48,163 nucleotides of DNA from Desulfobacteraceae bacterium (GTDB lineage Bacteria > Desulfobacterota > Desulfobacteria > Desulfobacterales > UBA11574). Position numbers and translations under genes: made by a program. Numbering within the stretch: position 1 is the first letter of the stretch; each line of letters begins with the position of its first letter. The stretch covers positions 1-48,163 of the forward strand of contig JAUVVL010000002.1 in the NCBI GenBank assembly GCA_030604635.1. The letters run 5' to 3'. Below are positions 21,952 through 46,635 of this stretch, one piece after another. Below the pieces are notes generated by a model. The model saw nothing but the letters and a program-made list of their open reading frames with translations, made no database searches and was not told where the DNA came from.

Positions 21952-22008
21952 TGCTATCACCTATTCTACTATCACACGATAGTGTCCGTTGTTTGTTGCT
22001 GGCAATAG

Positions 22009-22850: not shown

Positions 22851-22925
22851 CATGATTTCTTTATTTTCCTGCCTGCCGGCAGGCAGGTCTTATATCCTGT
22901 TATCCTGTCAAAAGAAGCTCAGCGG

Positions 22926-24243: not shown

Positions 24244-24257
24244 TTTGCACCTCCCTC

Positions 24258-24464
24258 TCAACCCGTTTCTCTCATTCCAGCCAACCTCGTTCCACAGGAG
24301 GGACAGAATTTGCGGTCCTCCTTATAATAATAGCGCCACGTTTCTAAGCACTCAGGACATTCCATGTTGAGTGACTGGCCACATTCTGTACAAAACTCTA
24401 GATGTCCCCAGGTAGTGGTGCCACACCTTGGGCATTTAAACGCGCCTTTTGGATCTCCACCCAT
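24258..24464 (-). CDS. Double zinc-ribbon protein
   Basis: CPRCG..CTECG and CPEC..CPSCG pairs in 68 aa. Confidence 0.6.
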   Translation of the reverse strand: MGGDPKGAFKCPRCGTTTWGHLEFCTECGQSLNMECPECLETWRYYYKEDRKFCPSCGTRLAGMRETG

Positions 24465-28314: not shown

Positions 28315-29256
28315 TCACTGGACCTTATGCTTTTCCAATGCCTTCTTTCCTTTGCCAGCCAGCAGGATCCTTCCGTTGAGCAGCATGTCTAAAAAATCCT
28401 TCTTAGCCATTGCTCCGGTAATCTTCTGTACCTGATCTACAGGAATACGAGACCTGGCACTAAGATCGGCGATGGTCGATTCTCCTTCTTCCACAAGGCC
28501 CAGCAAAAGCACCTGTTGGGAGGTCACTTTTTCAAGCTCAACCGCTTCGTCTTTGGCGAAAAGCGTCTCACATTCCGGCGTAAGCACATAAATACCCCGT
28601 GCCACCTTTTCGAGATAGCCTTTTTTGATCATGGATTCGCAGACAAAGGCCACATAGTCGGAAGTCAAACCCAGTCTTCTTGCAATCTGGGTCTTGCCGG
28701 CCTCTTTCATGTCGTAAACCACTCTTCCAATATCGCCGGCCGTTCCGCTGGGACGGCCAAAAAATTTTTTCGCACCATGTTTCACGTTGACCACCCCCCT
28801 GCCCTTGCACCCACTGCAGTAAAGGTTCGAGTTATCTAATTCGCGACCCCGGCCCCGGCACTGAGGACACGGTTCTATAGGCTCCTCCACCGCTATTACG
28901 CCGGCTCCCTTACAGGCCAGACAGGTCACATCGCTGCCCACCTTGTCTTCACCAGTACCCCGGCAAAAACCACAGACAATCGCTGTTCCTGTCTTGATAT
29001 GAACCTCTCCTTTGCCTTTACAAACAGGGCAGACCATCGCTCCCTTCCGGCTTCCGGTACCTGAACAAAAACCGCATTCCTGCGAGTCCCCCCTCAATAT
29101 CGTCTTTTCGGGCAGCCTTTGCCCACCTCTGGCCCTGCCTGGCCCTGCCTTTACAGGGCTCCATATGAGCCCTTCCTGCTGACCTGAACCAGCCTCCCTG
29201 TATCTCAGTCTATTTGTTGCTGTGCCCGATTTATTTGCTGTCTGCCAGTCTCCCAT
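28315..29256 (-). CDS. DnaJ-type zinc-finger (6 repeats) fused to two wHTH domains
   Basis: CGFCSGTG, CPVCKGKG, CGFCRGTG, CLACKGAG, CPQCRGRG, CSGCKGRG. These are followed by KTQIARRLGLTSDYVAFVCESMIKKGYLEK and a second wHTH, STIADLSARSRIPVDQVQKITGAMAKKDFL. ATG 29256 has a GGAGG RBS; the upstream part of the track ORF lies in a palindromic repeat. Confidence 0.8.
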   Translation of the reverse strand: MGDWQTANKSGTATNRLRYREAGSGQQEGLIWSPVKAGPGRARGGQRLPEKTILRGDSQECGFCSGTGSRKGAMVCPVCKGKGEVHIKTGTAIVCGFCRGTGEDKVGSDVTCLACKGAGVIAVEEPIEPCPQCRGRGRELDNSNLYCSGCKGRGVVNVKHGAKKFFGRPSGTAGDIGRVVYDMKEAGKTQIARRLGLTSDYVAFVCESMIKKGYLEKVARGIYVLTPECETLFAKDEAVELEKVTSQQVLLLGLVEEGESTIADLSARSRIPVDQVQKITGAMAKKDFLDMLLNGRILLAGKGKKALEKHKVQ

Positions 29257-29326
29257 TCCAGTTCCTCCCTCTAAATTAGCCAAAAGTAAAAATGGAAATT
29301 CCTGTACCAACAAGTTATTATTAATT

Positions 29327-29402
29327 CTTAGCCACAGACACACACGGACGAACAGAGACTTTCATTATCTTGTCTGTGCCTGTCTGTGTGGGTCTGTGGC
29401 TG
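29327..29402. repeat. Imperfect palindrome built of CAGACAC-type heptamers
   Basis: agccacagacacacacggacgaacagagac ..loop.. gtctgtgcctgtctgtgtgggtctgtggct. Confidence 0.6.
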
Positions 29403-29506: not shown

Positions 29507-30895
29507 TTAATAATTAGCCATTTCCTGCTCGAATTCGTCTTTAATGTGTTTAAAATGAAAAGTATAGCGAGCCTCTCTGTATAAATTCATCAGCTCTTCG
29601 TCCGGCAGATGATTTAATTTTATAATCCCTCCCCGTGGATTGAACATATTGAACTCCTCCCAGTTATCGGTTTTGAGCATTCCATGCTTCCGGCAATAAT
29701 GAAACAGGTCCGTGCCGGGAAAAGGGGTGACGACTGAAAAACTGGCCTGGTCCAGATCTAGAGTCCTGGCCAGTTCGATAGTTCGACCAATGGTTTTATG
29801 GTCTTCCGCAGGGTATCCGATCATAAAATTGCCGTGTGGGAAGATGCCGGCCTTCCTGGTCATTTCGACGGCCCGGTGAATTTGACGCAAAGTGGTCCCC
29901 TTGCCTGAGAAATCAAGGATCGACTGGTCTCCGAATTCTATGCCGTAAAAAATCACCCTGCAATTTGCTTTTTTCATCTCTATGAGAATATCTTCGCTAA
30001 TGGTATCCACCCTGCTGTCGCAAGACCATGCCACTTTATCGGACAGCCCCCTGTTAATCATTCCCCGGCAGAACCCTGTAAGCCATCTTTTGTTTAGTGA
30101 AAGATTTTCGTCAGTAAAACGAATATTGCTGATTTTGTGGACACTGTAAATTTGTTCCAATTCGTCCAACACGTTCTCCACAGACCTTCTTCTTTGCGTG
30201 GGCCAAAGATGGGGTACGGAACAAAACCTGCACCGAAATGCGCAACCCCTGGTGGCGGTCACTGCTGCAAACCTCTTTTTCTCGCCGTCACCTATAATGG
30301 CTTTATAGATATTTACCGGCAGAAGTTCCCGCGCTGGAAAGGGCAGGCTGTCCAGGTCTGAAATGGGTGGCCTGTCGGAATTAACCACAACGCTGCCGTC
30401 TGCCTTGAAGCTCAGGCCTTTTATTTTCCTGAGATTAGACCCGTTGCCCAGAGCCTCTATGAGTTCTGCCAGGGCATATTCGCCCTCACCCCTGATGCAA
30501 AAATCAATAAATGGCTTCCGGATTATACTCTCGTGCTCAAAGTGGATGTGGGGACCTCCCGCCACTATCATGGTAAAGGGAAGTGATTCTTTGATTTTTT
30601 GGCATAGATTCAGGACGCTTTTTAGCTGGGTGGTAAAAACCGTAACACCAACCACCTCCGCCAGTTTTTCTGCGCTGACCATCTTAATCACTTCATCGTG
30701 CGACAACATCAGCGACTTGGCGTCTATGATGTTGACTGCCACACCCCTTTGTTTGAGGACGGCCGCCAGATAGGCCAACCCCACCGGCGGATAAGCCGAG
30801 TCCTGCCGGTAGGCATCCGCGATGCCTTCCTCGCCTGAAAGATTAACCGGTAATACAGGCGGATCAATCAATATGCATTTAATCTGTTTAGCCAT
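29507..30895 (-). CDS. B12-binding-domain radical SAM enzyme, paralog 2
   Basis: PPVGLAYLAAVL..GGPHIHFEH and cluster motif ATRGCAFRCRFCSVP. Collinear similarity to 14334..15713. Confidence 0.85.
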   Translation of the reverse strand: MAKQIKCILIDPPVLPVNLSGEEGIADAYRQDSAYPPVGLAYLAAVLKQRGVAVNIIDAKSLMLSHDEVIKMVSAEKLAEVVGVTVFTTQLKSVLNLCQKIKESLPFTMIVAGGPHIHFEHESIIRKPFIDFCIRGEGEYALAELIEALGNGSNLRKIKGLSFKADGSVVVNSDRPPISDLDSLPFPARELLPVNIYKAIIGDGEKKRFAAVTATRGCAFRCRFCSVPHLWPTQRRRSVENVLDELEQIYSVHKISNIRFTDENLSLNKRWLTGFCRGMINRGLSDKVAWSCDSRVDTISEDILIEMKKANCRVIFYGIEFGDQSILDFSGKGTTLRQIHRAVEMTRKAGIFPHGNFMIGYPAEDHKTIGRTIELARTLDLDQASFSVVTPFPGTDLFHYCRKHGMLKTDNWEEFNMFNPRGGIIKLNHLPDEELMNLYREARYTFHFKHIKDEFEQEMANY

Positions 30896-31510: not shown

Positions 31511-31966
31511 TCACTCCTCCCTTTTTTCTTCTTCTACCAGTTTGTCCAGTTCTTTTTGCAGCTCCACAGATTTTTCTTTATACTCTTCCTCTGTTATCTC
31601 CCCAATTTCCCGGCGCATTTGCAGTTCCAGAAGAGCATCCTTGAGCCTGGCTTCCTGATCCATCTCCTCATCGGCAATAGCACCCATCCTTCCGGCCAGT
31701 TTCGCTACCCCGGTCAGCGGGCTCAGAGGAACGGTGACCGGAGCTTTCAGGATCGTACCCAGCAGTCCTTTTTCCACCGGACGGAGGGTTTTCCTGCGCT
31801 TCATGCTTTTGCCCCAACCCCAGGAAGGCATCAATCCCCAGAACCGTGGCAGGGTTATCCGGGGAATTCCACTAACCAGGCCAATAACACTGCCAACCAG
31901 CGGAAATCTGCCCTTTTGAAAGTGGACCTTATCCATTTTCTTTGGTTTATTTCCCTTCTTTGCCAC
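31511..31966 (-). CDS. GvpG-like protein with ~75-aa basic/hydrophobic N-terminal extension
   Basis: C-terminal half LKAPVTVPLSPLTGVAKLAGRMGAIADEEMDQEARLKDALLELQMRREIGEITEEEYKEKSVELQKELD parallels GvpG (31969..32208). Confidence 0.6.
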   Translation of the reverse strand: MAKKGNKPKKMDKVHFQKGRFPLVGSVIGLVSGIPRITLPRFWGLMPSWGWGKSMKRRKTLRPVEKGLLGTILKAPVTVPLSPLTGVAKLAGRMGAIADEEMDQEARLKDALLELQMRREIGEITEEEYKEKSVELQKELDKLVEEEKREE

Positions 31967-33017: not shown

Positions 33018-34082
33018 CTAATGTATAACCTTCCTTGACCCAAGCACCTGCAGGTTGGTGTCAAACTTGAGTTCATAGATCACAATTGGGGGCCTGCCTG
33101 CCCGCTCAATATTGCGCGTGCGCATCTCTTCCCAGGGCTCCACCATTGCCCTCCACCCACCGTTCTCCTGGTTGAGGTTGACAACCCTGCCGGCCTCGCT
33201 GATGGCCTTTTCGAGCACTTTAATGCCTACCTGAGGGGCTTTTTCACGGATAACATTCATCAAAGGCTTGAGAAAGTGCCTAACCTGTTCTGCCCGCTTC
33301 TTCTTTTCATCTTTTATTTTTTCGTAAGAGCTGATCTTCAATTCCTGATCGACACGAAGCTCATAGAGACTCGGTTCTGTGCGGTGCTCCTTACGCCGCC
33401 GTTTTTTTTCCTCCCAGGGCTCGATCACGGCCATGCATCCGTCCCCCTCCCATTTCAGGTCCACCACTTCACCCAGAGCATCGAATGCCTCCTCAAAAAA
33501 CCCGGCAGCCATATCAGGGGTTACATTGTGCCTGGCCTCGTACAATTTTTTGCTGAAAATGCGCAGGCAAGCCTGCAATTGGGCCTTTTGCTCCTCCATT
33601 CTTCGCTTCTCCTCTGCCTCTTGCCTCTTTCTGGCCTCTCGCGTCTCCTTCCATGTAGCTGCTTCTTTCTCCAGAGCAACCACCCGGGGATCGGGACGAG
33701 TTATTCCCCTGGCCCTGCGCCATTCCATGGCCATCAGCTTCTTTCTGATTGCCACAACGGTGGCCGTGTTTATAGAAATTGGTTTGGCTTCTTTTTTATC
33801 CTTTTTTTTCTGAGGCATCCATGAATCCAGCATTGAATGCGATGATCTCTTCTTTGTAAATTCCTCGGAGGATACCTCGTGAAAAGCTATAGCTGAGGTG
33901 GTATCTCCTACAGGAGTTGCAGCCGCCGGTTTCGATTGAAGCCTTTGATATTCAAAATCCCTCTTTACAGCCTCGGATTCTCTTTCGATGGCAGATTTAT
34001 CCGGATACTTTTTCCCGAACATTCGTGCTTTTTCCTTAGCAATTTCGTCTATGGCTGTTTTTCTGAGACCTGCACTCTTCAT
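33018..34082 (-). CDS. Protein with two tandem GvpO-like domains
   Basis: Start at ATG 34082, overlapping the upstream TGA (ATGA). The two segments FEEAFDALGEVVDLKWEGDGCMAVIEPWEE..SLYELRVDQELKI and LEKAISEAGRVVNLNQENGGWRAMVEPWEE..VIYELKFDTNLQV mirror the GvpO core (..DSDGWLVSIEVIEK..LATYETKLDPDGNM). Confidence 0.6.
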   Translation of the reverse strand: MKSAGLRKTAIDEIAKEKARMFGKKYPDKSAIERESEAVKRDFEYQRLQSKPAAATPVGDTTSAIAFHEVSSEEFTKKRSSHSMLDSWMPQKKKDKKEAKPISINTATVVAIRKKLMAMEWRRARGITRPDPRVVALEKEAATWKETREARKRQEAEEKRRMEEQKAQLQACLRIFSKKLYEARHNVTPDMAAGFFEEAFDALGEVVDLKWEGDGCMAVIEPWEEKKRRRKEHRTEPSLYELRVDQELKISSYEKIKDEKKKRAEQVRHFLKPLMNVIREKAPQVGIKVLEKAISEAGRVVNLNQENGGWRAMVEPWEEMRTRNIERAGRPPIVIYELKFDTNLQVLGSRKVIH

Positions 34083-34579
34083 ACTCCCCCTCCTTTTACT
34101 GTCACCACTCCTTTTCCCCTGCACTCGACGCAGGGGAGCTTGCTGTGAGAATCTACCGCCCGCCCTTTGCATCTGCGGCACTGCTCCAGGGGTTCTCTGA
34201 CCGGCACCACACCCTTTCCTCGACAGACCACGCAGGTGATGTTGGTGCGGGGGCGTTCCTCGCCCCGGCCCTTGCAAAAAACGCAAATCATGGCAGGGGG
34301 GGTAACCGAAACCAGACCTTTGCCCCGGCACACAGGGCACGTACTTCCCCTGGGCTTTTCGCCGGAGCCCTGGCAGAACGCACACGGATAAGTTTCTTTA
34401 CGGAGTATCCCCCTGATCTGCTGACCCATTAGGCCCGGATCGTACTGCTCACCAATCTCTTTTACGTCAACCGGCTCCCAGAGCAAACCGCTGTCATGAA
34501 ACCGCGCTTCGCCGTCCCTCTGGTTTTCCGCCTTTTTCAGGTTATGCGAAGGTGTTACATATTCAAATTCCAAAGTCAT
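34079..34579 (-). CDS. Stand-alone DnaJ-type zinc-finger protein, 6 repeats (paralog of the N-terminal half of 28315..29256)
   Basis: CAFCQGSG, CPVCRGKG, CVFCKGRG, CVVCRGKG, CRRCKGRA (degenerate), CVECRGKG. Shared N-terminal motif GLLWEPV / GLIWSPV. ATG 34579 has a GGGAGGA RBS. Confidence 0.8.
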   Translation of the reverse strand: MTLEFEYVTPSHNLKKAENQRDGEARFHDSGLLWEPVDVKEIGEQYDPGLMGQQIRGILRKETYPCAFCQGSGEKPRGSTCPVCRGKGLVSVTPPAMICVFCKGRGEERPRTNITCVVCRGKGVVPVREPLEQCRRCKGRAVDSHSKLPCVECRGKGVVTVKGGGV

Positions 34580-34794
34580 TCCTCCCGTTACCACAATAAT
34601 CCACGGACTTTTTTGACAGGCCCGCCCTGGCGCGACGTAAGAAACTTTGTTTAGGTTTAGCTATTAATCATTAGATTCCGGATATCGATAGCCGCTGCTC
34701 TTTTAACCAGGTCTGGGCCAGGGATTAACTGGATTTATTACCCGGCAGGCAGGTCTTATATCCTGATCATCTTGTACATCCTGTCATTTAAGTT

Positions 34795-35061
34795 TTAGTC
34801 TTCTACGTCTTCCGTATCGATTCGCTTGCGCATCCTGACCCGCTTGAATTCCAGCATATTTCCGTCGGGATCCAACTTGGTTTCGTATGTGGCCAGAACA
34901 TCCATACCGTCAGGAAGGGAATGCTTTTCAATGACCTCTATACTCACCAGCCACCCGTCACTATCTCTGGCCGCCCCCAAGGTTGATCCAACCTCTAAAG
35001 CGGTAAGCAAACTTAATTCTGACCGTGCCTTTTCTATTACTTCTCTTATACCTAAAGCCAT
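34795..35061 (-). CDS. gvpO: Gas vesicle protein GvpO
   Basis: IEKARSELSLLTALEVGSTLGAARDSDGWLVSIEVIEKHSLPDGMDVLATYETKLDPDGNMLEFKRVRMRKR. Start at ATG 35061. Confidence 0.85.
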   Translation of the reverse strand: MALGIREVIEKARSELSLLTALEVGSTLGAARDSDGWLVSIEVIEKHSLPDGMDVLATYETKLDPDGNMLEFKRVRMRKRIDTEDVED

Positions 35062-35100
35062 TTTGTTTTGCCTCCTTTTGTGAAATAATATTGAATAACT

Positions 35101-35175
35101 CACGAAAATCTGTGTAATCTGCGCCTGCCCCGTGGGTCCGGAAGATCGTACTGGGGTAATCTGTGGATTAAAATT
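35101..35175. repeat. 75-nt dispersed repeat R2, copy 1
   Basis: cacgaaaatctgtgtaatctgcgcctgccccgtgggtccggaagatcgtactggggtaatctgtggattaaaa has about 4 mismatches to 41498..41570. Confidence 0.85.
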
Positions 35176-35215
35176 AATAGAATTCCTTCAATCTTCATTC
35201 TTCAATCTTCAATCT

Positions 35216-35971: not shown

Positions 35972-36994
35972 TCAATTAACCACTGATCTCCTGACATCTA
36001 TCCACCCCCTGACATCCGCTTCCTTAAATGAACACCGGTCCTCCCGGCAGTAATCGCTGAGCATATGATAGGCCTTGTTGATCTTCTCAAACCTCTGATG
36101 AACTTCCGGATCACCCGGATACTTATCGGGATGAAACTTTTTGCTCAATTCCTTGTACGCTTCCCTCATTTCAAAAGTCTCGGCTTCTTCCCCTAACCCC
36201 AGCATTTTTCTGGCCTCGTTGATCTCATCAAATTCCGCCTTTTTAATCTCCAGCGTGTTGAAACTGTATGGGGGAAGGGGGCCTATAATTCTAAAATTGA
36301 TTGCGTTTTTGAATCGTTTGTCCAGTTGGTCCACTTTCAACTCAAAGGTTTTTTGATTATCTTTCTTTATTAAAAAAGCGCTGTTCATTATCATAGAATC
36401 ATCCATAACTTCATGCGTCCGGTAAGTTTCAGCTTCTTTTCTCAATACATTCAATATGTTTGAAACGCATTTATCCCTCTTTTTATCCAACGTGTCCTTG
36501 ACCATTTTCCCCAGGTTTATTTTAATTTCAAATAGTTGATCAGCCGGTTTAGATGCCGCTTCTTCCTTAAGTTTTTTAATCTCTTCTTCTCTTCCTATTT
36601 CCTTTAAAACCGTCTCCATGTCGCTCCATAGTGCCGCTACATCGAGCTCTATTTTGTTCTCCATTTCCTTGAGGTTTGTGTTGATTCGTCGATAGCCCTT
36701 TTTTAGGATTATCTTAAGCTCTTCCTGTCCTTGAACCATTGTTCCGAATTTCACCGGTATAATGTGATGACTTTTCATCACCTTTTCGATGACAGCTTGA
36801 TAAACGGCCAAATTGCGGAGGAGAGTTTCTTTGGGTAGAGAATCAAATTGTATGAGCGGCAAATCGCTAACCACAGCAGCGATATCCTGATAGGAAAAGG
36901 TGTAAACTTCTCCCTGATCTAAACCTATGGCGCCAAAATTTTCATGTTCACTTTTATTGACAAAACCATAAATGTATCTTCCTTCTATGGCCAT
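35972..36994 (-). CDS. gvpF: GvpL/GvpF-family protein fused to a C-terminal DnaJ J-domain
   Basis: N-terminal GRYIYGFV..GLDQGEVYTFSYQDIAAVVS and IIGPLPPYSFNTLEI (GvpF/L). C-terminal LGLGEEAETFEMREAYKELSKKFHPDKYPGDPEVHQRFEKINKAYHMLSD has the HPD tripeptide. Single uninterrupted ORF. Confidence 0.9.
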   Translation of the reverse strand: MAIEGRYIYGFVNKSEHENFGAIGLDQGEVYTFSYQDIAAVVSDLPLIQFDSLPKETLLRNLAVYQAVIEKVMKSHHIIPVKFGTMVQGQEELKIILKKGYRRINTNLKEMENKIELDVAALWSDMETVLKEIGREEEIKKLKEEAASKPADQLFEIKINLGKMVKDTLDKKRDKCVSNILNVLRKEAETYRTHEVMDDSMIMNSAFLIKKDNQKTFELKVDQLDKRFKNAINFRIIGPLPPYSFNTLEIKKAEFDEINEARKMLGLGEEAETFEMREAYKELSKKFHPDKYPGDPEVHQRFEKINKAYHMLSDYCREDRCSFKEADVRGWIDVRRSVVN

Positions 36995-37137: not shown

Positions 37138-39264
37138 TCACCGTACTTCCTTTAATGCTTCCTGAAAGTGCTTTCCTGAAACCAAAAGCTTGGACTCATC
37201 CCGGCCTCCATTTTGAATAAATTCTCTTATGGCTGTCATTGAGGCCTTCCTGCAAATTAATTCTATATCCGCTCCAACAAGCCTCTCCGTTGCACCGGCC
37301 AGTGCCTTAAGGTCCACGTTCTTGGCCAAAGGTTTCCCTCTGGTATGGACTTTAAATATCTCTAATCTTGTCTCCTCATCCGGGATGGGAAGCTCCAGCA
37401 GGAAATCGAATCTGCCGGCCCTGAGCAAGGCCGAATCGACAATATCCAGTCTGTTAGTAGCCGCCAGAACCACAATCCCCTTGAGTTCCTCGATTCCGTC
37501 CAGCTCGGTCAGAAATTGGCTGATGACGCGATCGACCACATGGGATGCAGCTTCGGAACCGCGCCTGGGAACCACACTGTCTATTTCATCGAAAAATATG
37601 ATACATGGAGAGGCCTGCTTGGCTTTCTTGAAAACCTCACGAACGCCTTTTTCGCTTTCTCCAACCCACTTGGAGAGGATCTCCGGGCCTTTGATTGAAA
37701 TAAAATTCACCTCTGATTCAGAGGCAACTGCCTTGGCAAGTAATGTCTTGCCTGTTCCGGGTGGACCATATAGCAATATACCTTTGGAAGGGTTTGTTTT
37801 GGCATGTTCAAACAACTTATCGTATTTCAGGGGCCATTCGATGGTTTCCTTTAGCACCCTTTTTATTTCGGAAAGTCCGCCGACATCGCTCCACTTTACA
37901 TCCGGAATTTCTGTGAACACTTCCCTGATGGCTGAAGGCTCAACTTCCTTAAGGGCCTCCATGAAATCATCCATAGTCACCTGAAGTTTCATCAAAGTCT
38001 CGTAAGGGATCTCTTCCATCTGGAAGTCAATGCTGGGGAAGAGTTCTCTCAGGGTAACCATCGCCGCTTCCCGGGAAAGGGCCTCCAGATCAGCACCAAC
38101 AAACCCATGAGTAATCTCGGATATACGCACCAAATCCACGTCCTCGGCCAGAGGCATTCCCCGTGTGTGGACATCCAGTATTTCAAGGCGGCCGTTTTTG
38201 TCGGGTATGCTGATTTCTATCTCTCGATCGAAACGTCCCGGCCTTCTCAAGGCTGGATCAAGGACATTGGGGATGTTGGTGGCGCCGATAACGATCACCT
38301 GACCTCTGGAGGAAAGGCCGTCCATCAATGCCAGAAGCTGGGCTACCACCCGCTTTTCCAGTTGTTTCTCGCCTCCCATCTCCTCCCGCTTGGGAGCAAC
38401 GGAGTCAATCTCGTCTAAAAATATAATGCTTGGAGCATGCACAGAGGCCTCATCAAATATCCTTCTGAGATGGGCCTCGCTTTCGCCATAGTACTTGTGC
38501 ATGATCTCCGGGCCGCTAATATGTCCAAAGTGTGCATCGGTCTCATTGGCCACAGCGCGGGCGATGAGGGTCTTTCCGCATCCGGGGGGACCGTGTAAAA
38601 GAACTCCTTTGGGAGGCTCGATGCCGAGCCTTTCAAAGACCTGGGGATATTTTAACGGCAGTTCGATCATCTCTCGAATCCGCCGGATTTCCTTGCCCAA
38701 CCCGCCGATATCTTCATAGGATATCCTGGCCATGGCCACACCAACGCCCTTCTTCTCCTGAATCCTCATAACAGTCTTGGGGTTGATTATCACCACGCCT
38801 GCGGGCTTGGTGGAAACAACTTTAAAATCCTGGGTTCGAGTTCCGATAAGTCTTGCTCTTACCATGTCACCCACTAATAGCGGCAAACCCTCCAGGAGGC
38901 TTCCGATGTAGCGGGCATCGTAGGAACGCATCAAGGTTAAAGGGGCAACAACAATTTTTTGGGCCGGCATGAAATCAGACTTTGTGACGGAAATTTTTTC
39001 GTCAAGGCCGACACGGGCATTTTCGCGGGTGATCCCATCCAGGCGAATCAAACTCTTGCCCCGGTCTTCCATATAGGCAGGCAAAACCTTGGCCACGGTT
39101 TCCCTTTTCCCTTTGATGGTCACCACATCTCCCACTTCAACCCCTATTTTTTTAAAATCGGCGGGGTCAAAACGGACAATGCCGCGACCTACATCTTTGG
39201 AACCAGCCTCTGCCACTTTTAGGGTAATGGTTTTGTTTTCTATGTTCTTTTTTTGGGCTTTCAT
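37138..39264 (-). CDS. Cdc48/VCP/VAT-like double-ring AAA+ ATPase (N-domain, D1, D2)
   Basis: N-domain [34 protein letters not shown]1 [11 protein letters not shown] / [10 protein letters not shown]2 [11 protein letters not shown] / IIFFDEIDS. Second-region-of-homology arginines are present. Confidence 0.92.
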
Positions 39265-39413: not shown

Positions 39414-39971
39414 CTAAATTGTCTTTATCTTAATCTCCAGTATCCCGTTTTTATATGACCAGGTCATATCCTCGGTCTTGACCGGGCGGGAGAGGAGGAC
39501 CTCTTTCTGATATTTTCTGCTTGCTCCCTCGGCAATAATATTCAGGATGTCCCCTTTAATCTCAAGGCTGATGTCCTTTTTCTCGATACCCGGCATCTCT
39601 GCAATAATATTAATCTCCCCGGGTTCTTCAAACACGTCCACGATAGGCTCGCGCATCTCCTCTACCACAGGACCCTTGGGAGTTTTTTTGATATTCCCAA
39701 AGGGCTGAATGGATGGCTTGCCGTCGGCCATGGTGCGTACCCTGACCCCGTAAACGCCTTTCAGATCCTTGAGCCCCTTGATCTTTTCGAGGCCGCTGAA
39801 ACGGATCTCGCCTGTTTTGGAAAGCTCTTCGCCCTTTTCAGCCAACTTAGTAGCTGTATCGATCAGATTACCCAGCCCCTTGAAGAGCCCGCCAAGACCA
39901 AAATCAATTCCAATGCCCTCGTCTTTTTTTTCTTCTTCAGGTTTTTCCTTCTTCTTTTTTTCTTCCGTCAT
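39414..39971 (-). CDS. Hsp20/alpha-crystallin protein (GvpH-like), copy 2
   Basis: IVDVFEEPGEINIIAEMPGIEKKDISLEIKGDILNIIAEG..NGILEIKIK. N-terminal LGGLFKGLGNLIDTATKLAEKGE. Confidence 0.8.
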   Translation of the reverse strand: MTEEKKKKEKPEEEKKDEGIGIDFGLGGLFKGLGNLIDTATKLAEKGEELSKTGEIRFSGLEKIKGLKDLKGVYGVRVRTMADGKPSIQPFGNIKKTPKGPVVEEMREPIVDVFEEPGEINIIAEMPGIEKKDISLEIKGDILNIIAEGASRKYQKEVLLSRPVKTEDMTWSYKNGILEIKIKTI

Positions 39972-40145: not shown

Positions 40146-40316
40146 TTATCTGGCACTTTGTCGTTTGCTAATAGTAATAAATTGGGCTCGATTCGTACCA
40201 GCCAGTTTAATTTCAACCAACTGACCTTCTTTTAAATCTGCTTTCCTTTGAATATTTTTGGGAATAGGAATTTTACCTTCTTTATCTACCCTTGCAAAAG
40301 CACGCATTAAAGCCAT
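40146..40316 (-). CDS. AbrB/SpoVT/MazE-type small DNA-binding protein (56 aa, below the ORF-track cutoff)
   Basis: MALMRAFARVDKEGKIPIPKNIQRKADLKEGQLVEIKLAGTNRAQFITISKRQSAR. The KEGKIPIPKNIR..L.EGQ.VEI pattern is the swapped-hairpin signature. G-rich RBS 8 nt upstream. Confidence 0.65.
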   Translation of the reverse strand: MALMRAFARVDKEGKIPIPKNIQRKADLKEGQLVEIKLAGTNRAQFITISKRQSAR

Positions 40317-40412: not shown

Positions 40413-40506
40413 GATTGATGATTGAAGGAATTCTGCCAATTTATTAAAAAAACGGAGCGTAGCGATTTCCACAAATATTCAATATTCAATCGACAATATT
40501 CAATTT
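40413..40506. mobile_element. MITE/REP-like element, family R1 copy c (inverted orientation)
   Basis: gattgatgattgaaggaattctgccaatttattaaaaaaacggagcgtagcgatttccac aaatattcaatattcaatcgacaatattcaat. Confidence 0.5.
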
Positions 40507-40508
40507 TA

Positions 40509-41426
40509 TTAGCAGTGTTGATCAATCAATTCTCCAATAACCTCTTTGACTTTGTCCTGGTTGGACTTGCTGCCGATGCGGCTGGTCTCTGATGACAAAA
40601 TATCCATACAGGTTTGTTTGAAAATTTCGTCATTCTTGTTGACCAAAGCCCTTCGGACCTTAAGAGTCTTGGCAATCATAACGCTGCCCCTTATGGTGGG
40701 AGCAAATTCGTACACATCGGAATCCCTCAGTCCCCGGACAATTTTAACAATCCTGGAGGCATCACCATTGGCAAGGCCTGATTTGGTTTCGGTGATACGA
40801 ACCTCCGTCTCTTCGTCGAAATGATCGAGATCAAGGGTGATCATTCGATCTCGGAGGGCATCCTGGCTGCGGTGCACGCCGGCATATTCCTCCGGGTTGC
40901 TGGTAAAAAGCGCCGTAAAGTCCGGGTCAACCCGCAGATAGTTCTCATCCCCCTCACGAGCCGCCGGCAGGTCCAGCATTTTTTCCTGGAGCACTGATAA
41001 AAGTACGTTATTGGCCTCGGGCCTGGAACGGGTAAATTCATCGTAAATGAGCGTGAACCCATACTTGCAGGCTACGGTCAGACGATTGTCCACCCACTTT
41101 TTTTGCAGATTCTCCTCGGTCTTAAGTACTGAATGGATGAAGTTATCCACCACCTTGCGCATACGATAACCATGCTCGCCGCCAACCAGGTCGGACGTGG
41201 AGAACTCCTCATCCCCGTGTATCATGACCACCGGCCGGCCGATCTTGCTGGCTACATGCATGGCCAGGGTGGTCTTGCCTGTTCCGGAAATCCCGCGCAA
41301 ATGAAGTGGAAAACCGGCCGCAATATAGGCCAGAGCCCTCTCGGTAATATCCTTTACAAACGGGGTTTCTACGAAGTTGGGCAGGGGACGCGGTTCCAAC
41401 ACAGTTGTCATTTCATCTATCGCCAT
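40509..41426 (-). CDS. gvpN: Gas vesicle AAA+ ATPase GvpN, copy 2
   Basis: FVETPFVKDITERALAYIAAGFPLHLRGISGTGKTTLA, TLIYDEFTRSRPEANNVLLSVLQE. Confidence 0.92.
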   Translation of the reverse strand: MAIDEMTTVLEPRPLPNFVETPFVKDITERALAYIAAGFPLHLRGISGTGKTTLAMHVASKIGRPVVMIHGDEEFSTSDLVGGEHGYRMRKVVDNFIHSVLKTEENLQKKWVDNRLTVACKYGFTLIYDEFTRSRPEANNVLLSVLQEKMLDLPAAREGDENYLRVDPDFTALFTSNPEEYAGVHRSQDALRDRMITLDLDHFDEETEVRITETKSGLANGDASRIVKIVRGLRDSDVYEFAPTIRGSVMIAKTLKVRRALVNKNDEIFKQTCMDILSSETSRIGSKSNQDKVKEVIGELIDQHC

Positions 41427-41497: not shown

Positions 41498-41570
41498 CAC
41501 GAAAATCTGTGTAATCTGCGCCTGCCCCGTAGGTCCGGAAGATCGTACTGGGGCAATCTGTGTATTAAAA
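41498..41570. repeat. 75-nt dispersed repeat R2, copy 2, enclosed by a perfect 13-bp inverted repeat (41478-41490 / 41577-41589)
   Basis: gcgataggcagtc .. R2 .. gactgcctatcgc. Confidence 0.85.
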
Positions 41571-41596
41571 CTACCTGACTGCCTATCGCATTCCGC

Positions 41597-41950
41597 CTAC
41601 TTCTTACTCACAACCCCCTTACCCCCGCATTTCGAGCAAGGGAGGTAATCGCCTGATTTGATACCCTTGCCCTCGCAGTCGGGGCAGGTCTCATACGGCT
41701 CTTTTATGTTTACCATGCCTTTTCCGCCGCAGGCAATACAGGTCAGGCGCTGGTCACGGTGAATACCTGTGCCGCCACAGAAAACACACTCGATGGCCGG
41801 TTCCGGGATGGTCACTTCTCCCCGGCCGCCACAGACCTGGCAGGTGGAGAGCTTGGACAAAAGCTCAAACGGGTCGGTCCCCTTTCCCTGACAGAAGGCG
41901 CATGTGGCAGTGACCCTCCCCTCTTCTCCTTGTAATATTTCGATACTCAT
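41597..41950 (-). CDS. Stand-alone DnaJ-type zinc-finger protein, 6 repeats
   Basis: CAFCQGKG, CQVCGGRG, CVFCGGTG, CIACGGKG, CPDCEGKG, CSKCGGKG. Confidence 0.85.
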   Translation of the reverse strand: MSIEILQGEEGRVTATCAFCQGKGTDPFELLSKLSTCQVCGGRGEVTIPEPAIECVFCGGTGIHRDQRLTCIACGGKGMVNIKEPYETCPDCEGKGIKSGDYLPCSKCGGKGVVSKK

Positions 41951-42011: not shown

Positions 42012-43079
42012 TCAGGCAATAAAATAGGTTGAATCTTCCTTCCTTACTTCTCCGTCGTCAAGGAGCTGTCTCATAACGGGAATCAGGGATCTCCAGCTTT
42101 CAATACCCAGGATGTCAGCCATCTCGACCATCCTCAGACCATCGGGATGGTCTTCAAGTATCCCTATGACCCCATCAGCCAGGCCCTCCTCCTCAGGCTC
42201 TTCTTCCTCTGCGAGATCCTCTTCCGGTTCCTCAATGACCTCCTCGGCAGATTCCTCTGCCGGTTCCTCGATGACCTCCTCAGCCGGTTCAACCTCCTCG
42301 GCAGCTTTTACCCTGGCCGGTCCTCTGGCCGACTGCATGGTAGCTAAAAGTTCCTTCCAGGCGACGGCCGTTTCTTCGCGTTCTTGTTTAAATTCCTTTA
42401 AGAGGTCATCAATATACTCCCTCCGAGGAGCATGCTCTGTCTTGAATTCTGCAATTAAATCCGCAACTTCCCTGGCTCGCCTAGGTCCCTCTGCCTTGAA
42501 TTCAGAAATCAGATCCGCAACTTCCCTGGCTCGCTCAGGTCCCTCTGCCGCAAATTCAGAAATCAGATCCGCAACCTCCCTGGCTCGCTCAGGTCCCTCT
42601 GCCTTGAATTCAGATATTAAATCGGCAACTTCCTTGGCTCGCTCAGGTCCCTCTGCCGCAAATTCAGAAATCAGGTCGGCAACCTCCCTGGCTCGCTCAG
42701 GTCCCTCTGCCTTGAATTCAGATATTAAATCGGCAACTTCCTTGGCTCGCTCAGGCCCCTCTGCTTTGAATTCAGAAATTAAATCAGCAACCTCCCTGGC
42801 TCGCTCAGGCCCCTCTGCTTTGAATTCAGAAATTAAATCAGCAACCTCCCTGGCTCGATCAGGCCCCTCTGCTTTGAATTCAGAAATTAAATCAGCAACC
42901 TCCTTGGCTCGCTCAGGCCCCTCTGCTTTGAATTCAGAAATTAAATCAGCAACCTCAGCCCTGCGCTCCTCATTTGCTGTTTTGCATTCAGATAACAGAT
43001 CTTGCACAAAATCCTTCCTGTCCCTATAGGCGCTGGCCATTTCATCTGCCAATCCTCTCAAATCGTCTGCATTTGCCAT
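42012..43079 (-). CDS. Acidic protein with ~10 tandem 18-aa repeats (EVADLISEFKAEGPERA[KR]), acidic linker and C-terminal wHTH-like domain
   Basis: Repeats span aa 42-221. The linker is EEVEPAEEVIEEPAEESAEEV... The C-terminus is ILEDHPDGLRMVEMADILGIESWRSLIPVMRQLLDDGEVRKE. It is the second gene downstream of gvpA. Confidence 0.7.
   Translation of the reverse strand: MANADDLRGLADEMASAYRDRKDFVQDLLSECKTANEERRAEVADLISEFKAEGPERAKEVADLISEFKAEGPDRAREVADLISEFKAEGPERAREVADLISEFKAEGPERAKEVADLISEFKAEGPERAREVADLISEFAAEGPERAKEVADLISEFKAEGPERAREVADLISEFAAEGPERAREVADLISEFKAEGPRRAREVADLIAEFKTEHAPRREYIDDLLKEFKQEREETAVAWKELLATMQSARGPARVKAAEEVEPAEEVIEEPAEESAEEVIEEPEEDLAEEEEPEEEGLADGVIGILEDHPDGLRMVEMADILGIESWRSLIPVMRQLLDDGEVRKEDSTYFIA
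42417..42956. repeat. 54-bp coding tandem repeat, ~10 units, near-identical
   Basis: Reiterated cctctgc[ct]ttgaattcaga[at]at[ct]a[ag]atc[ag]gcaac[ct]tcc[ct]tggctcgctcagg[ct]c units. Confidence 0.9.
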
Positions 43080-43246
43080 GTCGTTTCCTCCTTAAAATTA
43101 ATAATCTCTTATTAAAGACATGCCCGGGAATGCACACCTGCCTATAGAGGGGTGATCTTACACCTCTATACCCTCAAGGATGCCCTGAAAGTTTATGATG
43201 GCGAACCTGCTATGAGCACAAGAACTACTCGCACAGATTGGCGTTT

Positions 43247-43538
43247 CGATTGAATATTGTCGATTGAATATTGACGCTTTGTGGAAGTCGCTCCTGCCCG
43301 CCATCGCACTCGCCGTAACCAGATATGCGAAATTCAAGCGCTTGTGCTCAGGCCCGCCCTCCTGCCAAGCGGAGTGAGGCGGACGGGCGAGGCGGGCGGG
43401 TCGCTCTGTTTTTTTAAAAAACTGACAGAATTCCTTCAATCTTCAATTCCTTCAATCTTCAATTCTTCAATCTTCAATTCTTCAATCTTCAATCTTCAAT
43501 TCTTCAATCTTCAATTCTTCAATCTTCAATCTTCAATT
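43247..43538. mobile_element. MITE/REP-like element, family R1 copy d (full length, with GC-rich module and long CTTCAAT arm)
   Basis: cgattgaatattgtcgattgaatattgac | gtggaagtcgct | cctgcccgccatcgca..gcgggcgggtcgctctgtttttttaaaaaactgacagaattcc | (c)ttcaat array 43431-43538. Confidence 0.6.
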
Positions 43539-43540
43539 GT

Positions 43541-44176
43541 CTATCCACTCACCCTTGCCACTGATTGCCACTGGCCCTGGACCCTGGCCCTGACGACGTC
43601 AAAGTCATCCAGCATTCTGGTTAATTCAACATCACGATCGCTCTGCTGAGCCCTTATTGAATTGAGCATGACCTTGAAGTCTTTAACTTTAACCCCCTCT
43701 CCTTTTGATAGAAGTTTTTTAAGCCCGGCCCTGAATTCCTCCAGCTCGATCTGGAAGCATTTGAGTGTCTTGATTACTTTTTTCTCACGCTCTTTTTGTC
43801 GTGTTGAAATATCCTCTTTAATGGCCTCCATATCTTGCAGGGTTGAGCTACTCACGCCTAGAACGATCTTCCTGAGCCGGCTGATCATTTCTTTTTCCTG
43901 TTCCTGGAAAAGCTTAAGGCTGTGTTTGGCCTCTTCCTCGCTCTGCCGGCGGCATTCTACCACATCACTGATCATACGATCAAAGTCCTTTTTTCTCAGG
44001 CTTTCCGCTTTAGCAAGATTGTCCCTCAGCCGGACGATCATGTTCTCGATCTCCGTTTGAAAGCTTTTAAGGAAATGATATGCTTGATCCATCAATGTGT
44101 TTACTGTCTTCACACGCATTTCATAAGAATCTATGATACTGTTGGCCAATGCCTTTAAATCCTCTCCAGCCCCCAT
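43541..44176 (-). CDS. Coiled-coil protein immediately downstream of gvpA, distantly related to the 18-aa-repeat protein
   Basis: N-terminal EDLKALANSIIDSYEMRVKTV parallels DDLRGLADEMASAYRDRKDFV of 42012..43079. Degenerate D-F-x-x-M-I-S motifs recur (KKDFDRMISDV, VKDFKVMLNSI). Confidence 0.55.
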   Translation of the reverse strand: MGAGEDLKALANSIIDSYEMRVKTVNTLMDQAYHFLKSFQTEIENMIVRLRDNLAKAESLRKKDFDRMISDVVECRRQSEEEAKHSLKLFQEQEKEMISRLRKIVLGVSSSTLQDMEAIKEDISTRQKEREKKVIKTLKCFQIELEEFRAGLKKLLSKGEGVKVKDFKVMLNSIRAQQSDRDVELTRMLDDFDVVRARVQGQWQSVARVSG

Positions 44177-44479: not shown

Positions 44480-44507
44480 GCTGAGGGGTTTTATAAAACG
44501 CCTCAGC
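44480..44507 (-). other. Stem-loop 45 nt downstream of the gvpA stop (possible partial terminator or mRNA stabiliser)
   Basis: gctgaggggttttataaaacgcctcagc: ~11-bp stem with one mismatch and no U-tract. Confidence 0.35.
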
Positions 44508-44551
44508 AATCCCAAGGATATCTGGCAATCCCCCTTCTTAATTAACGGATA

Positions 44552-44758
44552 CTAAGCGGCCTCGGGTAATAGTCCAACGGCCTCAGCGTATTTCAAGAAA
44601 GTCTCAACGCCAGCTATGACGATCCTGGCCTCAATAGCTAAAAGCTCAATGCCGACCAGGGAAATCCTGACCCATGCATCGACCACAACGCCCTTGTCGA
44701 GAATTCTATCGACAACCTCTACCAAACTTGAAGATGCTATTGCTTTTTCTACTGCCAT
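44552..44758 (-). CDS. gvpA: Major gas vesicle structural protein GvpA
   Basis: [63 protein letters not shown] is near-canonical GvpA. GGGGAGGTG RBS. Confidence 0.97.
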
Positions 44759-44799: not shown

Positions 44800-44815
44800 A
44801 GCACTTATCATGCCA
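44800..44815 (-). promoter_or_regulatory. Sigma54 (-24/-12) promoter candidate for gvpA
   Basis: The minus strand reads TGGCATgataaGTGCT, with GG and GC at the exact consensus spacing (TGGCAC-N5-TTGCW), about 40 nt upstream of the gvpA ATG. An NtrC-type activator gene is adjacent. Confidence 0.6.
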
Positions 44816-45019
44816 ATAAAGCACTTCTTTTCATATCTGTTTGAATTCATAGCTAAACATATAAAAACGCGTATATGTTATAAGGACAGCATGTAGCCAG
44901 GCGGTATGGCATTGCCGCCCAAATTAGGGCACGAGTGGGATATTCGACATTCATTATTCCTTGTTCGACCTGCCCGCAATGCCTTTGGGCAGATTAGAGA
45001 TAGCACCTCAATGTTTATA

Positions 45020-45135
45020 CCTGCCCGCCATCGCACCCGCTATACCCAGATATGCGAAATTCAAGCACTTGTGCTCAGGCCCGCCCTTCCTGCCAAGCGG
45101 AGTGAGGCGGACGGGCGAGAGCGTTGCGGGCAGGA
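45020..45135. repeat. GC-rich REP module (family R1 core), copy in the gvpA upstream region
   Basis: cctgcccgccatcgcacccgctatacccagatatgcgaaattcaagcacttgtgctcaggcccgcccttcctgccaagcggagtgaggcggacgggcgagagcgttgcgggcagg. Confidence 0.8.
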
Positions 45136-45174: not shown

Positions 45175-46635
45175 TCACTTTTTGGCTGCTAACAACTGAC
45201 CGCTGACCACTGTCCACTGTCCACTGTTTATCTGATACCTCTTAATCTTTCTAAGCAAAGTTTTATAATCGATGCCGAGCCTGCGGGATGCCGCAGTTTT
45301 ATTCCCTTTTGTTTCGTTTAACATCTGAGTTATTATCTTTTTTTCCACGGTTTGGGAAATAGACTTAACTATCTCCGAGAGAGTTTTTCCCGCATCATTG
45401 TCAGGGATAGAGGCTTTTATTTCTGAAGTGCAATGTATGATATTAGAATTAAATATAAAGTGAATTGGTTTAATTGAAACATTTTCCTCGCTGATAAGCA
45501 CGGCCTGGCGTATAACATTTCGCAATTCACGAACATTCCCGGGCCATGGATATGAGGCCAGTGATTGAAGAGCCACCTTAGAAATCCCCTGACATTTTTT
45601 TTTGAGTTCCTGCTGAACTTCATTCATAAATCTATAAGCAAGATAGGAGATATCCTCTTTTCTTTCTCTGAGTGCAGGGACTTTCACGGCAAATTCCTTT
45701 AAGCGGAAATAGAGGTCGGGACGGAACTTTCCGGACTCTATATCTTTTTCCAGAGGCTGATTTGTAGCCGCAATAATTCGGACCTGAACGGATTTAGCTT
45801 TTTTTGATCCCAATCTTTGAATACAACGCTCCTGCATTGCTCGAAGAATTTTTTGCTGCGCCTGATATGGCAGATTGCCGATTTCATCTAAAAACAGAGT
45901 ACCTTTGTTAGCCAACTCAAACTGCCCTGGTTTGTCAGTGTAAGCTCCGGTAAAAGCTCCCTTCATATAACCGAATAGTTCACTTTCAATCAGGGTTTCC
46001 GGAATTGCACCGCAGTCGACGGCCACAAACGGTCCTTTTTTCACCATACTCATATCGTGAATGGCACGGGCCACAAGCTCCTTGCCTGTGCCGCTCTCTC
46101 CTTCTATTAAAACTGTAAATAAAGTGGGGGCAACCTTCTCCACAAGATTGGCAAGCTTCTTGATCTGATCACTTTTTCCCATAAGCTTATAAAGGGAGTC
46201 CCTTTCACTTATAACCTTTCTTAAATGTTCGATCTCTTGCACAAGATTTTTCTTCTCAAACGCCCGTTGGATGGTAAAGAGGAGGGCGCTGTTATCTATC
46301 GGCTTTGTAATATAGTCGTGTACGCCTACCTTTATGGCCTTAACCACGGACTTTACATCTGCATAGGCCGAAATCATGATAATCGGTATTGCTGGAAAAC
46401 GTCGCCTCATAACCTCGGCAACGCGCTGGCCATTCTGCCCGGGCATCCGGTAGTCTAATAAAATCATGTCAGGGATATTCTTCTCCAGCAAACTCAGAGC
46501 TTCATCCCCATCTTGCGCCTGAGCCACCATGTATCCTGCTCCCTGAAGGACATTGGTTATTGCCCAACGAAAATCAGAATCGTCATCCACCACCAGCATC
46601 TTCCTTGCGGGCGATATATGTTTCTCAGCAGTCAT
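45175..46635 (-). CDS. NtrC-family sigma54-dependent response regulator (REC, AAA+ sigma54-interaction domain, Fis-type HTH)
   Basis: MLVVDDD..ILLDYRMPGQNG; GESGTGKE Walker A; KGAFTGA (GAFTGA loop); LFLDEI; C-terminal AASRRLGIDYKTLLRKIKRY. The last ~15 aa run into a heptamer array. Confidence 0.92.
   Translation of the reverse strand: MTAEKHISPARKMLVVDDDSDFRWAITNVLQGAGYMVAQAQDGDEALSLLEKNIPDMILLDYRMPGQNGQRVAEVMRRRFPAIPIIMISAYADVKSVVKAIKVGVHDYITKPIDNSALLFTIQRAFEKKNLVQEIEHLRKVISERDSLYKLMGKSDQIKKLANLVEKVAPTLFTVLIEGESGTGKELVARAIHDMSMVKKGPFVAVDCGAIPETLIESELFGYMKGAFTGAYTDKPGQFELANKGTLFLDEIGNLPYQAQQKILRAMQERCIQRLGSKKAKSVQVRIIAATNQPLEKDIESGKFRPDLYFRLKEFAVKVPALRERKEDISYLAYRFMNEVQQELKKKCQGISKVALQSLASYPWPGNVRELRNVIRQAVLISEENVSIKPIHFIFNSNIIHCTSEIKASIPDNDAGKTLSEIVKSISQTVEKKIITQMLNETKGNKTAASRRLGIDYKTLLRKIKRYQINSGQWTVVSGQLLAAKK

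Follow-up and report, generated by a model that had tools for sequence, protein, structure and literature searches.

We analyzed a 48,163-nucleotide stretch of DNA from a Desulfobacteraceae bacterium (contig JAUVVL010000002.1, positions 1 to 48,163; hereafter the window), which carries a large gas-vesicle (gvp) gene cluster on its minus strand. One open reading frame (ORF) in this cluster, ORF355, encodes a protein of 355 amino acids (aa) that consists, in order, of an N-terminal helix, ten 18-aa units, a helix with a conserved Trp, an acidic linker of 45 aa that is predicted to be disordered, and a winged helix at the C-terminus. Judged by sequence comparison, it is one member of a large family in which units of 33-65 aa are usual. 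The best reading of this family is that it forms a third, sequence-unrelated class of GvpC-like proteins that would bind the gas-vesicle shell. We observed the anatomy, fold, family, synteny, paralogy and repeat turnover described below, which suggest putative roles in shell binding and bracing and a putative role for the winged helix.

Anatomy of ORF355

The gene and its parts are listed here, with the source of each assignment in brackets (TRF, Tandem Repeats Finder; AF2, AlphaFold2; pLDDT, predicted local distance difference test).

42012-43079, minus: ORF355, whole gene, 355-aa repeat and winged-helix protein (ORF list, sequence, homologues P0001-P0015)
43087-43093, minus: strong Shine-Dalgarno sequence AAGGAGG, 7 nt 5' of the ORF355 ATG (direct sequence reading)
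42957-43079, minus: conserved N-terminal helix MANADDLRxLAxEMAxAYxxR, aa 1-41 (alignment, hhalign, AF2)
42417-42956, minus: ten 18-aa (54-bp) units, aa 42-221 (TRF, unit table, AF2)
42327-42416, minus: conserved last helical module YIDDLLKEFKQEREETAVAWKELL, aa 222-251 (invariant columns, local alignments)
42192-42326, minus: acidic, predicted disordered linker, aa 252-296 (pLDDT, charge, TRF)
42015-42191, minus: winged-helix domain H1-S1-H2-H3-S2-S3, aa 297-355 (AF2, Foldseek, weak Pfam matches)
42012-42014, minus: stop codon

A first-pass annotation, made from the letters of the window, had called this frame a GvpC-like candidate. The 355-aa frame is present with its 54-bp tandem array and Shine-Dalgarno sequence, and TRF placed the array at 42435-42956 (period 54, 9.7 copies, 89% matches, score 750). 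Nine of the claimed ~10 near-identical repeats fit that description (units 1-9, consensus EVADLISEF[KA]AEGP[EDR]RA[KR]), whereas the tenth is degenerate (EVADLIAEFKTEHAPRRE). Each unit forms a helix of ~14-16 residues with a V-L-I-F hydrophobic stripe, followed by Gly-Pro. The DNA of the units had been described as almost invariant, with recent expansion or contraction suggested, which holds for a part of the array: units 1-4 are 96-100% identical and two pairs are identical (1=4 and 5=7), but the remaining pairs share 80-91%. Variation among units 1-9 affects 15 of the 54 nucleotide columns, 9 of these 15 being third-codon positions and 8 purely synonymous. Because inter-unit variation is mostly synonymous or at third positions, the unit peptide is better conserved than its DNA, and this pattern indicates that the peptide is under purifying selection. 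Units 1-4 alone look recently amplified; in the others, synonymous differences are numerous. It should be noted that repeat collapse in short-read assemblies is possible, which bears on the copy number of units 1-4 and on the length variants of the family.

With a 16-sequence alignment, AF2 predicted aa 4-251 to be helical and interrupted at every Gly-Pro inside the array (pLDDT 40-75). The 18-aa unit aligned best to the last helical module of the family, ERKxxVxxMLDEFRKE (local alignment, z 2.4-4.7), in which A238 and W241 are invariant across the family. Because of this alignment, and because the 33-aa module of its relatives is missing, the array looks like a lineage-specific amplification of this conserved module, which was the likely template of the 18-aa unit. 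The unit was found in none of the 15 protein matches of ORF355, and its exact DNA pattern and back-translated peptide pattern had 0 matches in metagenome contigs. Within the collections searched, the 18-aa array is thus unique to this lineage as far as sequence can tell. An antisense, Ser/Ala-rich ORF of 305 aa (42112-43029, plus strand) was rejected as a by-product of the repeat because it is the minus frame that follows a Shine-Dalgarno sequence, belongs to a conserved family and varies at third positions. A Pfam match to Nebulin (E 2.5e-16, 59 bits), in which no single stretch passes, and a match to EcoR124_C (34 bits) were both treated as artefacts of summed near-identical helical units or of composition; they recur in no other family member.

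The linker is poly-acidic, as the first-pass annotation had it, with 20 D/E and no K/R in aa 266-300; AF2 gave pLDDT below 50 for aa 252-297, and TRF found a 36-bp tandem duplication inside the linker (42205-42281). In relatives, linkers built of short tandem units (EEPEQ, VEEAIEEP) were seen when P0009 was compared with P0011 and P0184 with P0185. In these same pairs the linker length differs between otherwise identical proteins, independently of the helical repeats.

A winged-helix C-terminus had also been proposed, and structure prediction agrees. Folded alone with 11 homologues, the domain reached an AF2 pLDDT of 97, and Foldseek against the PDB returned winged helices (template modelling (TM) score 0.86-0.89, root-mean-square deviation ~1 Å, probability 1.0), with E-values of only ~1e-2 because the domain is small. 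Matches included Zalpha domains, TtgV (IclR type), MarR proteins and SelB, as well as the O-methyltransferase dimerisation domains, which are non-DNA-binding winged helices. The ~57-residue H1-S1-H2-H3-S2-S3 fold is the same as in Zalpha (ADAR1/ZBP1/ORF112) and in the winged helix-turn-helix (wHTH) domains of IclR and MarR proteins. In contrast to these, with which it shares 12-25% identity, the ORF355 domain is acidic rather than basic and is the C-terminal appendage of a helical protein from an organelle cluster. Its net charge is about -7 (12 D/E vs 5 K/R, pI 4.2); the family mean is -3.1 (range -12 to +9, 86 representatives). The most conserved motif is LLDxG(E/K)(V/I)RKE(D/N)xxY(F/Y). ORF355 had no Pfam helix-turn-helix (HTH) match at all, and in 11 relatives no such model reached its curated threshold: sub-threshold MarR_2, HTH_IclR and HTH_24 matches occurred in only 3-4 of them (best E 1.7e-4 to 5.5e-3). 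The best HTH match in diverse members was HTH_24 on the protein of locus L027 (20.6 bits vs a cutoff of 21.9), and one distant member had a weak EutK_C match (E 0.006). The winged-helix profile searched against PDB chain sequences gave nothing better than E 0.15.

Family, synteny and a paralogue

A search of 5.8 billion proteins yielded 15 relatives of ORF355. They share with it the N-terminal helix (MANADDLxRLAxE..AYEER), the A238/W241 helix, the acidic linker and a winged helix that is 53-93% identical, while their repeat regions are quite unlike the ORF355 array. Invariant columns of the family alignment are A238, W241, G314, W329, K347, E348 and Y352. A winged-helix profile search over 1.84 billion representatives detected 294 clusters (50% identity) at E<=1e-3 and 69 at E<=1e-10; in the 150 best representatives, the domain was almost always at the extreme C-terminus of a protein of 200-520 aa. 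No Pfam or NCBIfam model covers the family, its members are annotated as hypothetical, and a literature search found no description of it. It is best filed as a previously unannotated GvpC-like family with unrelated sequence, unusual modular repeats and a winged-helix head.

ORF355 is the second gene after gvpA (44552-44758), as had been stated, and its nearest neighbors are the following.

44552-44758, minus: gvpA, 68 aa (Pfam Gas_vesicle, E 1.9e-16)
43541-44176, minus: 211-aa paralogue of ORF355
41597-41950, minus: 117-aa DnaJ-type CxxCxGxG zinc-finger protein, downstream of ORF355 (syntenic in most loci)
40509-41426, minus: gvpN (AAA+ ATPase), which closes the gvpA...gvpN slot (NCBIfam TIGR02640, E 4.8e-102)

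A scan of one genome per species revealed 25 loci, mostly in metagenome-assembled genomes (MAGs) of Desulfobacteraceae, Syntrophaceae and Desulfatiglandales; the rest include a Methanophagales (ANME-1) archaeon, one MAG each of Stahlbacteria and Chloroflexi, and a small number of further hosts. The first-pass annotation had named homologues lying mainly outside gvp loci as evidence that would speak against its candidate. Instead, an ORF355 homologue lay between gvpN and gvpA, the latter alone or together with the 211-aa paralogue, in 36 of the 36 loci examined (most of them from Desulfobacterota), namely L001-L029, L034-L037 and this window, with L001-L004 and L034-L037 coming from metagenomes. 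In three of them (L024, L025 and L029), the homologue alone fills the gvpA-X-gvpN slot, as gvpC does in Halobacterium and Nostoc.

In one lineage, represented by 16 contigs, the homologue is split into a helical ORF (392 aa) and a winged-helix ORF (67 aa), and the winged-helix head is therefore an autonomous module. One database names this split domain an IclR-family regulator. At L035:391-1769, and also in L036 and L037, the 392-aa ORF ends in the linker and the 67-aa ORF starts at a GTG that overlaps the TGA (GTGA), which may reflect a natural split whose two parts are translationally coupled, or else a frameshift site.

The 211-aa protein is helical and has no winged helix. The first-pass annotation had noticed that this intervening gene shares its N-terminal motif and degenerate D-F-x-x-M-I-S units with ORF355, and profile comparison confirms a common N-terminal motif and helical region. 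The N-terminal helix is common to the whole family and to the 211-aa protein, and hhalign of the latter with the family gave 96% probability (E 2e-9 to 5e-9 over 149-199 columns; reversed-sequence control 0.5%). By this measure it is a true paralogue, so that genes for two homologous helical proteins lie close to gvpA. One of them is conserved and of fixed length: its family has 346 matches, of which the 120 listed are 65-84% identical and all annotated as hypothetical. The other, the ORF355 type, is of variable length and carries the linker and the winged helix.

GvpC-like features and their alternatives

We consider it about an even chance that ORF355 is a vesicle-surface protein of the GvpC type, with its helical part along the GvpA ribs and its tethered acidic winged helix serving as a protein-interaction head. 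The N-terminal two-thirds, helical throughout, would run along the ribs on the outer side of the GvpA shell and turn its hydrophobic R/V/L/I/F stripe towards the conserved alpha2 helices of GvpA. This part (the N-terminal helix, the ten proline-punctuated 18-aa helices and the Trp helix) would comprise ~250 residues, or 37 nm if extended, and when bound would strengthen the shell in the way of GvpC. Through the 45-aa disordered linker the winged helix would be kept off the shell, and this head might form a self-association network or dock GvpN, GvpO, GvpF/L or zinc-finger proteins, a role that would parallel that of the zinc-finger C-terminal domain of haloarchaeal GvpC. DNA binding is a less likely role, disfavored because the winged helix is acidic (-7, against the family mean of -3.1) and follows a poly-acidic linker, although charge alone is not decisive. 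The 211-aa paralogue may be a fixed-length companion coat protein, and gain or loss of repeat units would alter the length of ORF355-type proteins and hence the span braced per molecule.

The repeat periods of the family, found by autocorrelation, are 18 (ORF355 only), 33, 40, 44, 51, 58, 62, 65 and 105 aa. Each corresponds to whole turns at 3.60-3.67 residues per turn (5, 9, 11, 12, 14, 16, 17, 18 and 29, respectively), a property of about three in ten integers, and the family periods are not mutually independent. Fourier analysis of hydrophobicity placed the peak of many members, as of the 211-aa paralogue, at 99.25-99.5 degrees (3.62-3.63 residues per turn, z up to 9) and that of Nostoc GvpC at 98.5 degrees. 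Long amphipathic helices whose same face always points to a surface are expected to show such a pattern. The exact 18-aa period of ORF355 permits only 20-degree harmonics, among which the 100-degree one was strong and in phase over all units. Residues R16, V2, L5 and F9 of the unit fall on one helical face, within 80-140 degrees. Sub-threshold matches to families of surface-coating amphipathic helices (ApoLp-III, Apolipoprotein, PhaP and CsmC) were recurrent. The fit of repeat length to the 12.1-12.7 Å GvpA spacing (33 aa = 4 subunits, 18 aa = ~2.1-2.2) was not used as evidence because, at 5% tolerance, nearly any longer period fits.

The length variation suspected from the array is seen in the family, where whole units set apart the two members of four protein pairs that are otherwise identical: P0002 and P0003 by 51 aa, P0009 and P0011 (2 mismatches) by 51 aa plus 20 aa of linker, P0010 and P0012 by 58 aa, and P0184 and P0185 by 102 aa plus 16 aa of linker.

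A 33-residue repeat of cyanobacterial GvpC covers four GvpA subunits of a rib, and a conserved Leu/Phe/Arg face binds against GvpA helix alpha2 (PMC9994262, PMC10185304). ORF355 resembles this system in lying downstream of gvpA, in its repeats, which are predicted to be all-alpha and may be amphipathic, in a similar hydrophobic periodicity of the two families (~3.63-3.66 residues per turn), in the varying repeat number (between strains there, between family pairs here) and, for several relatives, in the 33-aa period. Its one-sided R16-V2-L5-F9 recalls the Arg/Leu/Phe face needed for GvpC binding (PMC9994262). The GvpA partner is also alike: the window GvpA is 81% identical to that of Nostoc, with the GvpC-docking helix alpha2 conserved and E52 and E59 kept (docking residues from PMC9994262). 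In contrast, cyanobacterial GvpC has neither an acidic linker nor a C-terminal globular domain, and the ORF355 unit is 18 aa long and broken by Gly-Pro.

Haloarchaeal GvpC (e.g., that of the Halobacterium salinarum p-vac cluster) is likewise an acidic protein encoded between gvpA and gvpN, in which helical repeats are followed by a long acidic linker and then by a compact C-terminal fold of nucleic-acid-binding type; this is an architectural resemblance, not family membership. In H. salinarum GvpC (L030:1501-2649), we found seven Halo_GVPC repeats, the acidic linker and a ROS_MUCR zinc finger (28.3 bits vs a cutoff of 25.4). This zinc finger is a DNA-binding-type fold after an acidic linker, in parallel to the winged helix of ORF355. 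The haloarchaeal C-terminal domain mediates GvpC-GvpC contacts and binds GvpN, GvpO and GvpF, H, I and L, as seen with split green fluorescent protein (PMC9372576). Unlike haloarchaeal GvpC, ORF355 ends in a winged helix instead of a zinc finger, shows no sequence similarity and is accompanied by a second paralogue; its units are of 18 aa, and those of its relatives 33-105 aa, compared with 32-40 aa in haloarchaea.

Direct comparison of ORF355 family and haloarchaeal GvpC by hhalign gave a probability of 0.2%, and cyanobacterial and haloarchaeal GvpC showed no mutual similarity by the same method. Because the accepted classes are mutually unlike, GvpC is a functional and positional label, and the ORF355 family is GvpC-like on those grounds only. 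"Non-homologous analogue", the term of the first-pass annotation, is a fair description, with no membership of either GvpC repeat family detected.

Several observations weigh against this assignment. Neither PF01304 (Gas_vesicle_C) nor PF05465 (Halo_GVPC) matched ORF355 (E<=0.01) or 10 diverse relatives (E<=1), whereas the positive controls were clear (Nostoc GvpC with Gas_vesicle_C, E 7.5e-48; H. salinarum GvpC with Halo_GVPC, E 3.4e-74). The hhalign match of the helical region of the family to cyanobacterial GvpC was marginal (21%, E 1e-3, 157 columns); it used a cyanobacterial profile of only two sequences, and its reversed control had E 0.16. AF2 confidence for the repeat array is low (pLDDT 40-60), and ORF355 lacks the 33-aa module dominant in its relatives. 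Its 120-degree harmonic is as strong as the 100-degree one, and its 16-residue helix, taken singly, shows no more than a modest hydrophobic moment (0.38-0.42, p 0.07-0.25 vs shuffles). The split lineage indicates that covalent tethering of the winged helix is not essential, and the closest structural matches of this domain are nucleic-acid binders. For every family member the link to vesicles is a genomic one, and with chaperone-like genes filling the cluster (Hsp20, CDC48, J-domain and zinc-finger proteins), a role in assembly would be equally natural.

Such an assembly role, which we regard as unlikely though deserving first consideration among the alternatives, would make ORF355 a scaffold or holdase whose amphipathic helices shield hydrophobic surfaces of GvpA (or GvpJ/M) before or during insertion, in the manner of phasins or apolipoproteins. 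The winged helix would then pass cargo to GvpN, CDC48 or the zinc-finger/J-domain machinery, and the protein would not belong to the mature vesicle. Besides the chaperone-rich cluster (Hsp20, CDC48, a GvpL/F-J-domain fusion, at least five DnaJ-type zinc-finger proteins and two GvpN), the sub-threshold ApoLp-III, apolipoprotein and PhaP matches are consistent with this possibility, as are the low AF2 confidence of the array, which fits folding upon binding, and the many accessory Gvp partners of the haloarchaeal GvpC C-terminal domain. ORF355 also shares with exchangeable apolipoproteins and apolipophorin-III the tandem, Pro-punctuated and probably amphipathic helices with whole-turn periods (11- and 22-residue there); however, these matches are below curated cutoffs and probably compositional, and the cellular context differs. 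In addition, the slot, the repeat turnover and the whole-turn periods suit a structural protein lying on a surface, a variable length would have no obvious use in a holdase, and the gene is located in the gvpA-proximal, presumably highly expressed part of the operon.

Less likely still, the winged helix may bind DNA, either as an autoregulator, whose free form would repress or activate gvp genes until titrated by the growing shell, or as a tether between vesicle and nucleoid for positioning or partition. Its best structural matches (Zalpha, TtgV, MarR; TM 0.86-0.89) bind DNA or Z-DNA, the weak MarR_2, HTH_IclR and HTH_24 matches and the IclR-family name given to the split domain point the same way, and R330, R337, R346 and K347 are conserved basic residues. 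Haloarchaeal GvpC independently has a zinc finger of the ROS/MucR DNA-binding type. However, the domain is acidic and preceded by the poly-acidic linker, no Pfam HTH model reached threshold, Foldseek also returned the O-methyltransferase dimerisation domains, and dedicated sigma-54 activators already flank the operon. Also against DNA binding, the domain lacks the Z-DNA contact residues of Zalpha, an N/Y in helix 3 and PPxW in the wing.

A joining of shell or amphipathic part to DNA-binding-type domain, as in ORF355, is known from the PhaF and PhaM phasins of polyhydroxyalkanoate granules and from EutK, with its C-terminal wHTH; there is no homology to these proteins, and charge disfavors DNA binding by ORF355. 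It seems rather improbable that coat proteins twice independently gained a nucleic-acid-binding-type head on an acidic tether and that the head of the ORF355 family really binds nucleic acid. If they did, the head would connect the surface of the organelle with the chromosome, or with transcripts or promoters of gvp genes, perhaps for vesicle positioning or partition at division (cf. PhaF/PhaM) or for feedback, in which free coat protein would report unfinished shell surface to gene expression.

Least probable of all is that the 211-aa paralogue is the true shell brace and ORF355 an adaptor that joins vesicles to each other or to some other structure of the cell, perhaps clustering them by means of its acidic disordered linker and its multivalent repeats. 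The paralogue directly follows gvpA, is of fixed length and 65-84% identical, as expected for a partner of conserved GvpA, and has a hydrophobic periodicity of 3.63 residues, with ORF355 far more variable. Against this reading, distant clusters (L024, L025 and L029) have only the winged-helix protein between gvpA and gvpN, and the homology of the two proteins in their helical region makes it probable that both bind to a similar surface.

The surrounding cluster and its significance

The remaining features of the cluster are the following.

45175-46635: sigma-54 activator gene
44801-44815, minus: sigma-54-type -24/-12 promoter-like site TGGCAT-N6-TGC, upstream of gvpA (consensus match only)
44501-44517, minus: terminator-like hairpin and T-run directly 3' of gvpA (consensus match only)
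40146-40316, minus: AbrB/MazE-like small gene
39414-39971, minus: Hsp20
37138-39264, minus: CDC48
35972-36994, minus: GvpL/F fused to a J domain
34795-35103, minus: gvpO
31511-31966, minus: gvpG
26119-27045, minus: second gvpN-like AAA+ gene

Further GvpF/L genes, zinc-finger proteins, B12-radical-SAM enzymes and ArsA ATPases lie beyond these. Sites of the -24/-12-like pattern number 2 in the window, against 1.6 expected by chance. The hairpin after gvpA is a possible attenuator that would set the ratio of GvpA to the downstream proteins. The second gvpN-like gene is 71-80% identical in DNA to gvpN (40509-41426), and the same duplication is found in L001, L006 and L008.

The cluster is unusually rich in chaperone-like functions, with DnaJ-type zinc fingers, the GvpL/F-J-domain fusion, Hsp20 and CDC48. 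At least five proteins are of the DnaJ cysteine-rich (CxxCxGxG) type (41597-41950, 34079-34594, 28315-29343, 23827-24261 and 17339-17782, all minus). The third of them, of 342 aa, continues after its CxxCxGxG region into two winged-helix-like segments (weak MarR_2 and TrmB matches), which were rejected as relatives of the ORF355 domain (hhalign 1.9%). Two B12-binding radical-SAM enzymes (29507-30895 and 14334-15713, minus) and an ArsA-type double ATPase (19927-21960, minus) are located in or beside the cluster, and DNA repeats D8 and D15 suggest a second ArsA-like copy at 2887-4902. Another repeat protein, of 264 aa (15798-16592, minus), consists of ~25 copies of the 8-aa unit P-x-P-L-K-x-Y-x (24-nt DNA period), ends in a CxxC...CxxC zinc ribbon and has no Pfam match.

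Repeats also occur between genes. A MITE-like (miniature inverted-repeat transposable element) intergenic repeat is present in copies 85-94% identical and in both orientations (43239-43538, 40414-40515, 8475-8528, 22000-22100, 22790-22859 and 45017-45087). It is joined to tandem runs of heptamers (CTTCAAT, AATGACC and similar), which occupy many intergenic gaps, among them the one of 460 bp that separates ORF355 from the 211-aa gene. A direct repeat of 87 nt (90% identical) occurs at two intergenic sites of the cluster, upstream of gvpO (35101-35187) and of gvpN (41498-41584) on the coding strand, and may be a shared regulatory or RNA element; an Rfam scan of the whole window, this repeat included, gave no match.

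GvpC is the main handle for tuning and functionalizing gas vesicles, both as a natural determinant of buoyancy and as an engineered part of acoustic reporter genes. Vesicles of Desulfobacterium vacuolatum have been reported to be made in Escherichia coli (PMC10344784). Well-characterized GvpC falls into two sequence classes only, the cyanobacterial and the haloarchaeal, and the ORF355 family is a candidate for a third, with ~294 clusters at 50% identity; beside it stands the family of the 211-aa paralogue, which has hundreds of members. The two families typically occur in anaerobes (Desulfobacterota, ANME-1 and others) whose gvp clusters are large and rich in chaperones. Within the ORF355 family, the 18-aa array itself is a lineage-specific curiosity. 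If ORF355-type proteins are true braces, their modular units of 18 to 105 aa would be a natural brace-length series in which coat length could be related to vesicle width and strength, and their winged-helix head would already provide a place for docking on the surface of the vesicle. A general question arises from the parallel to the haloarchaeal zinc finger, namely why DNA-binding-type domains are found on gas-vesicle coat proteins.

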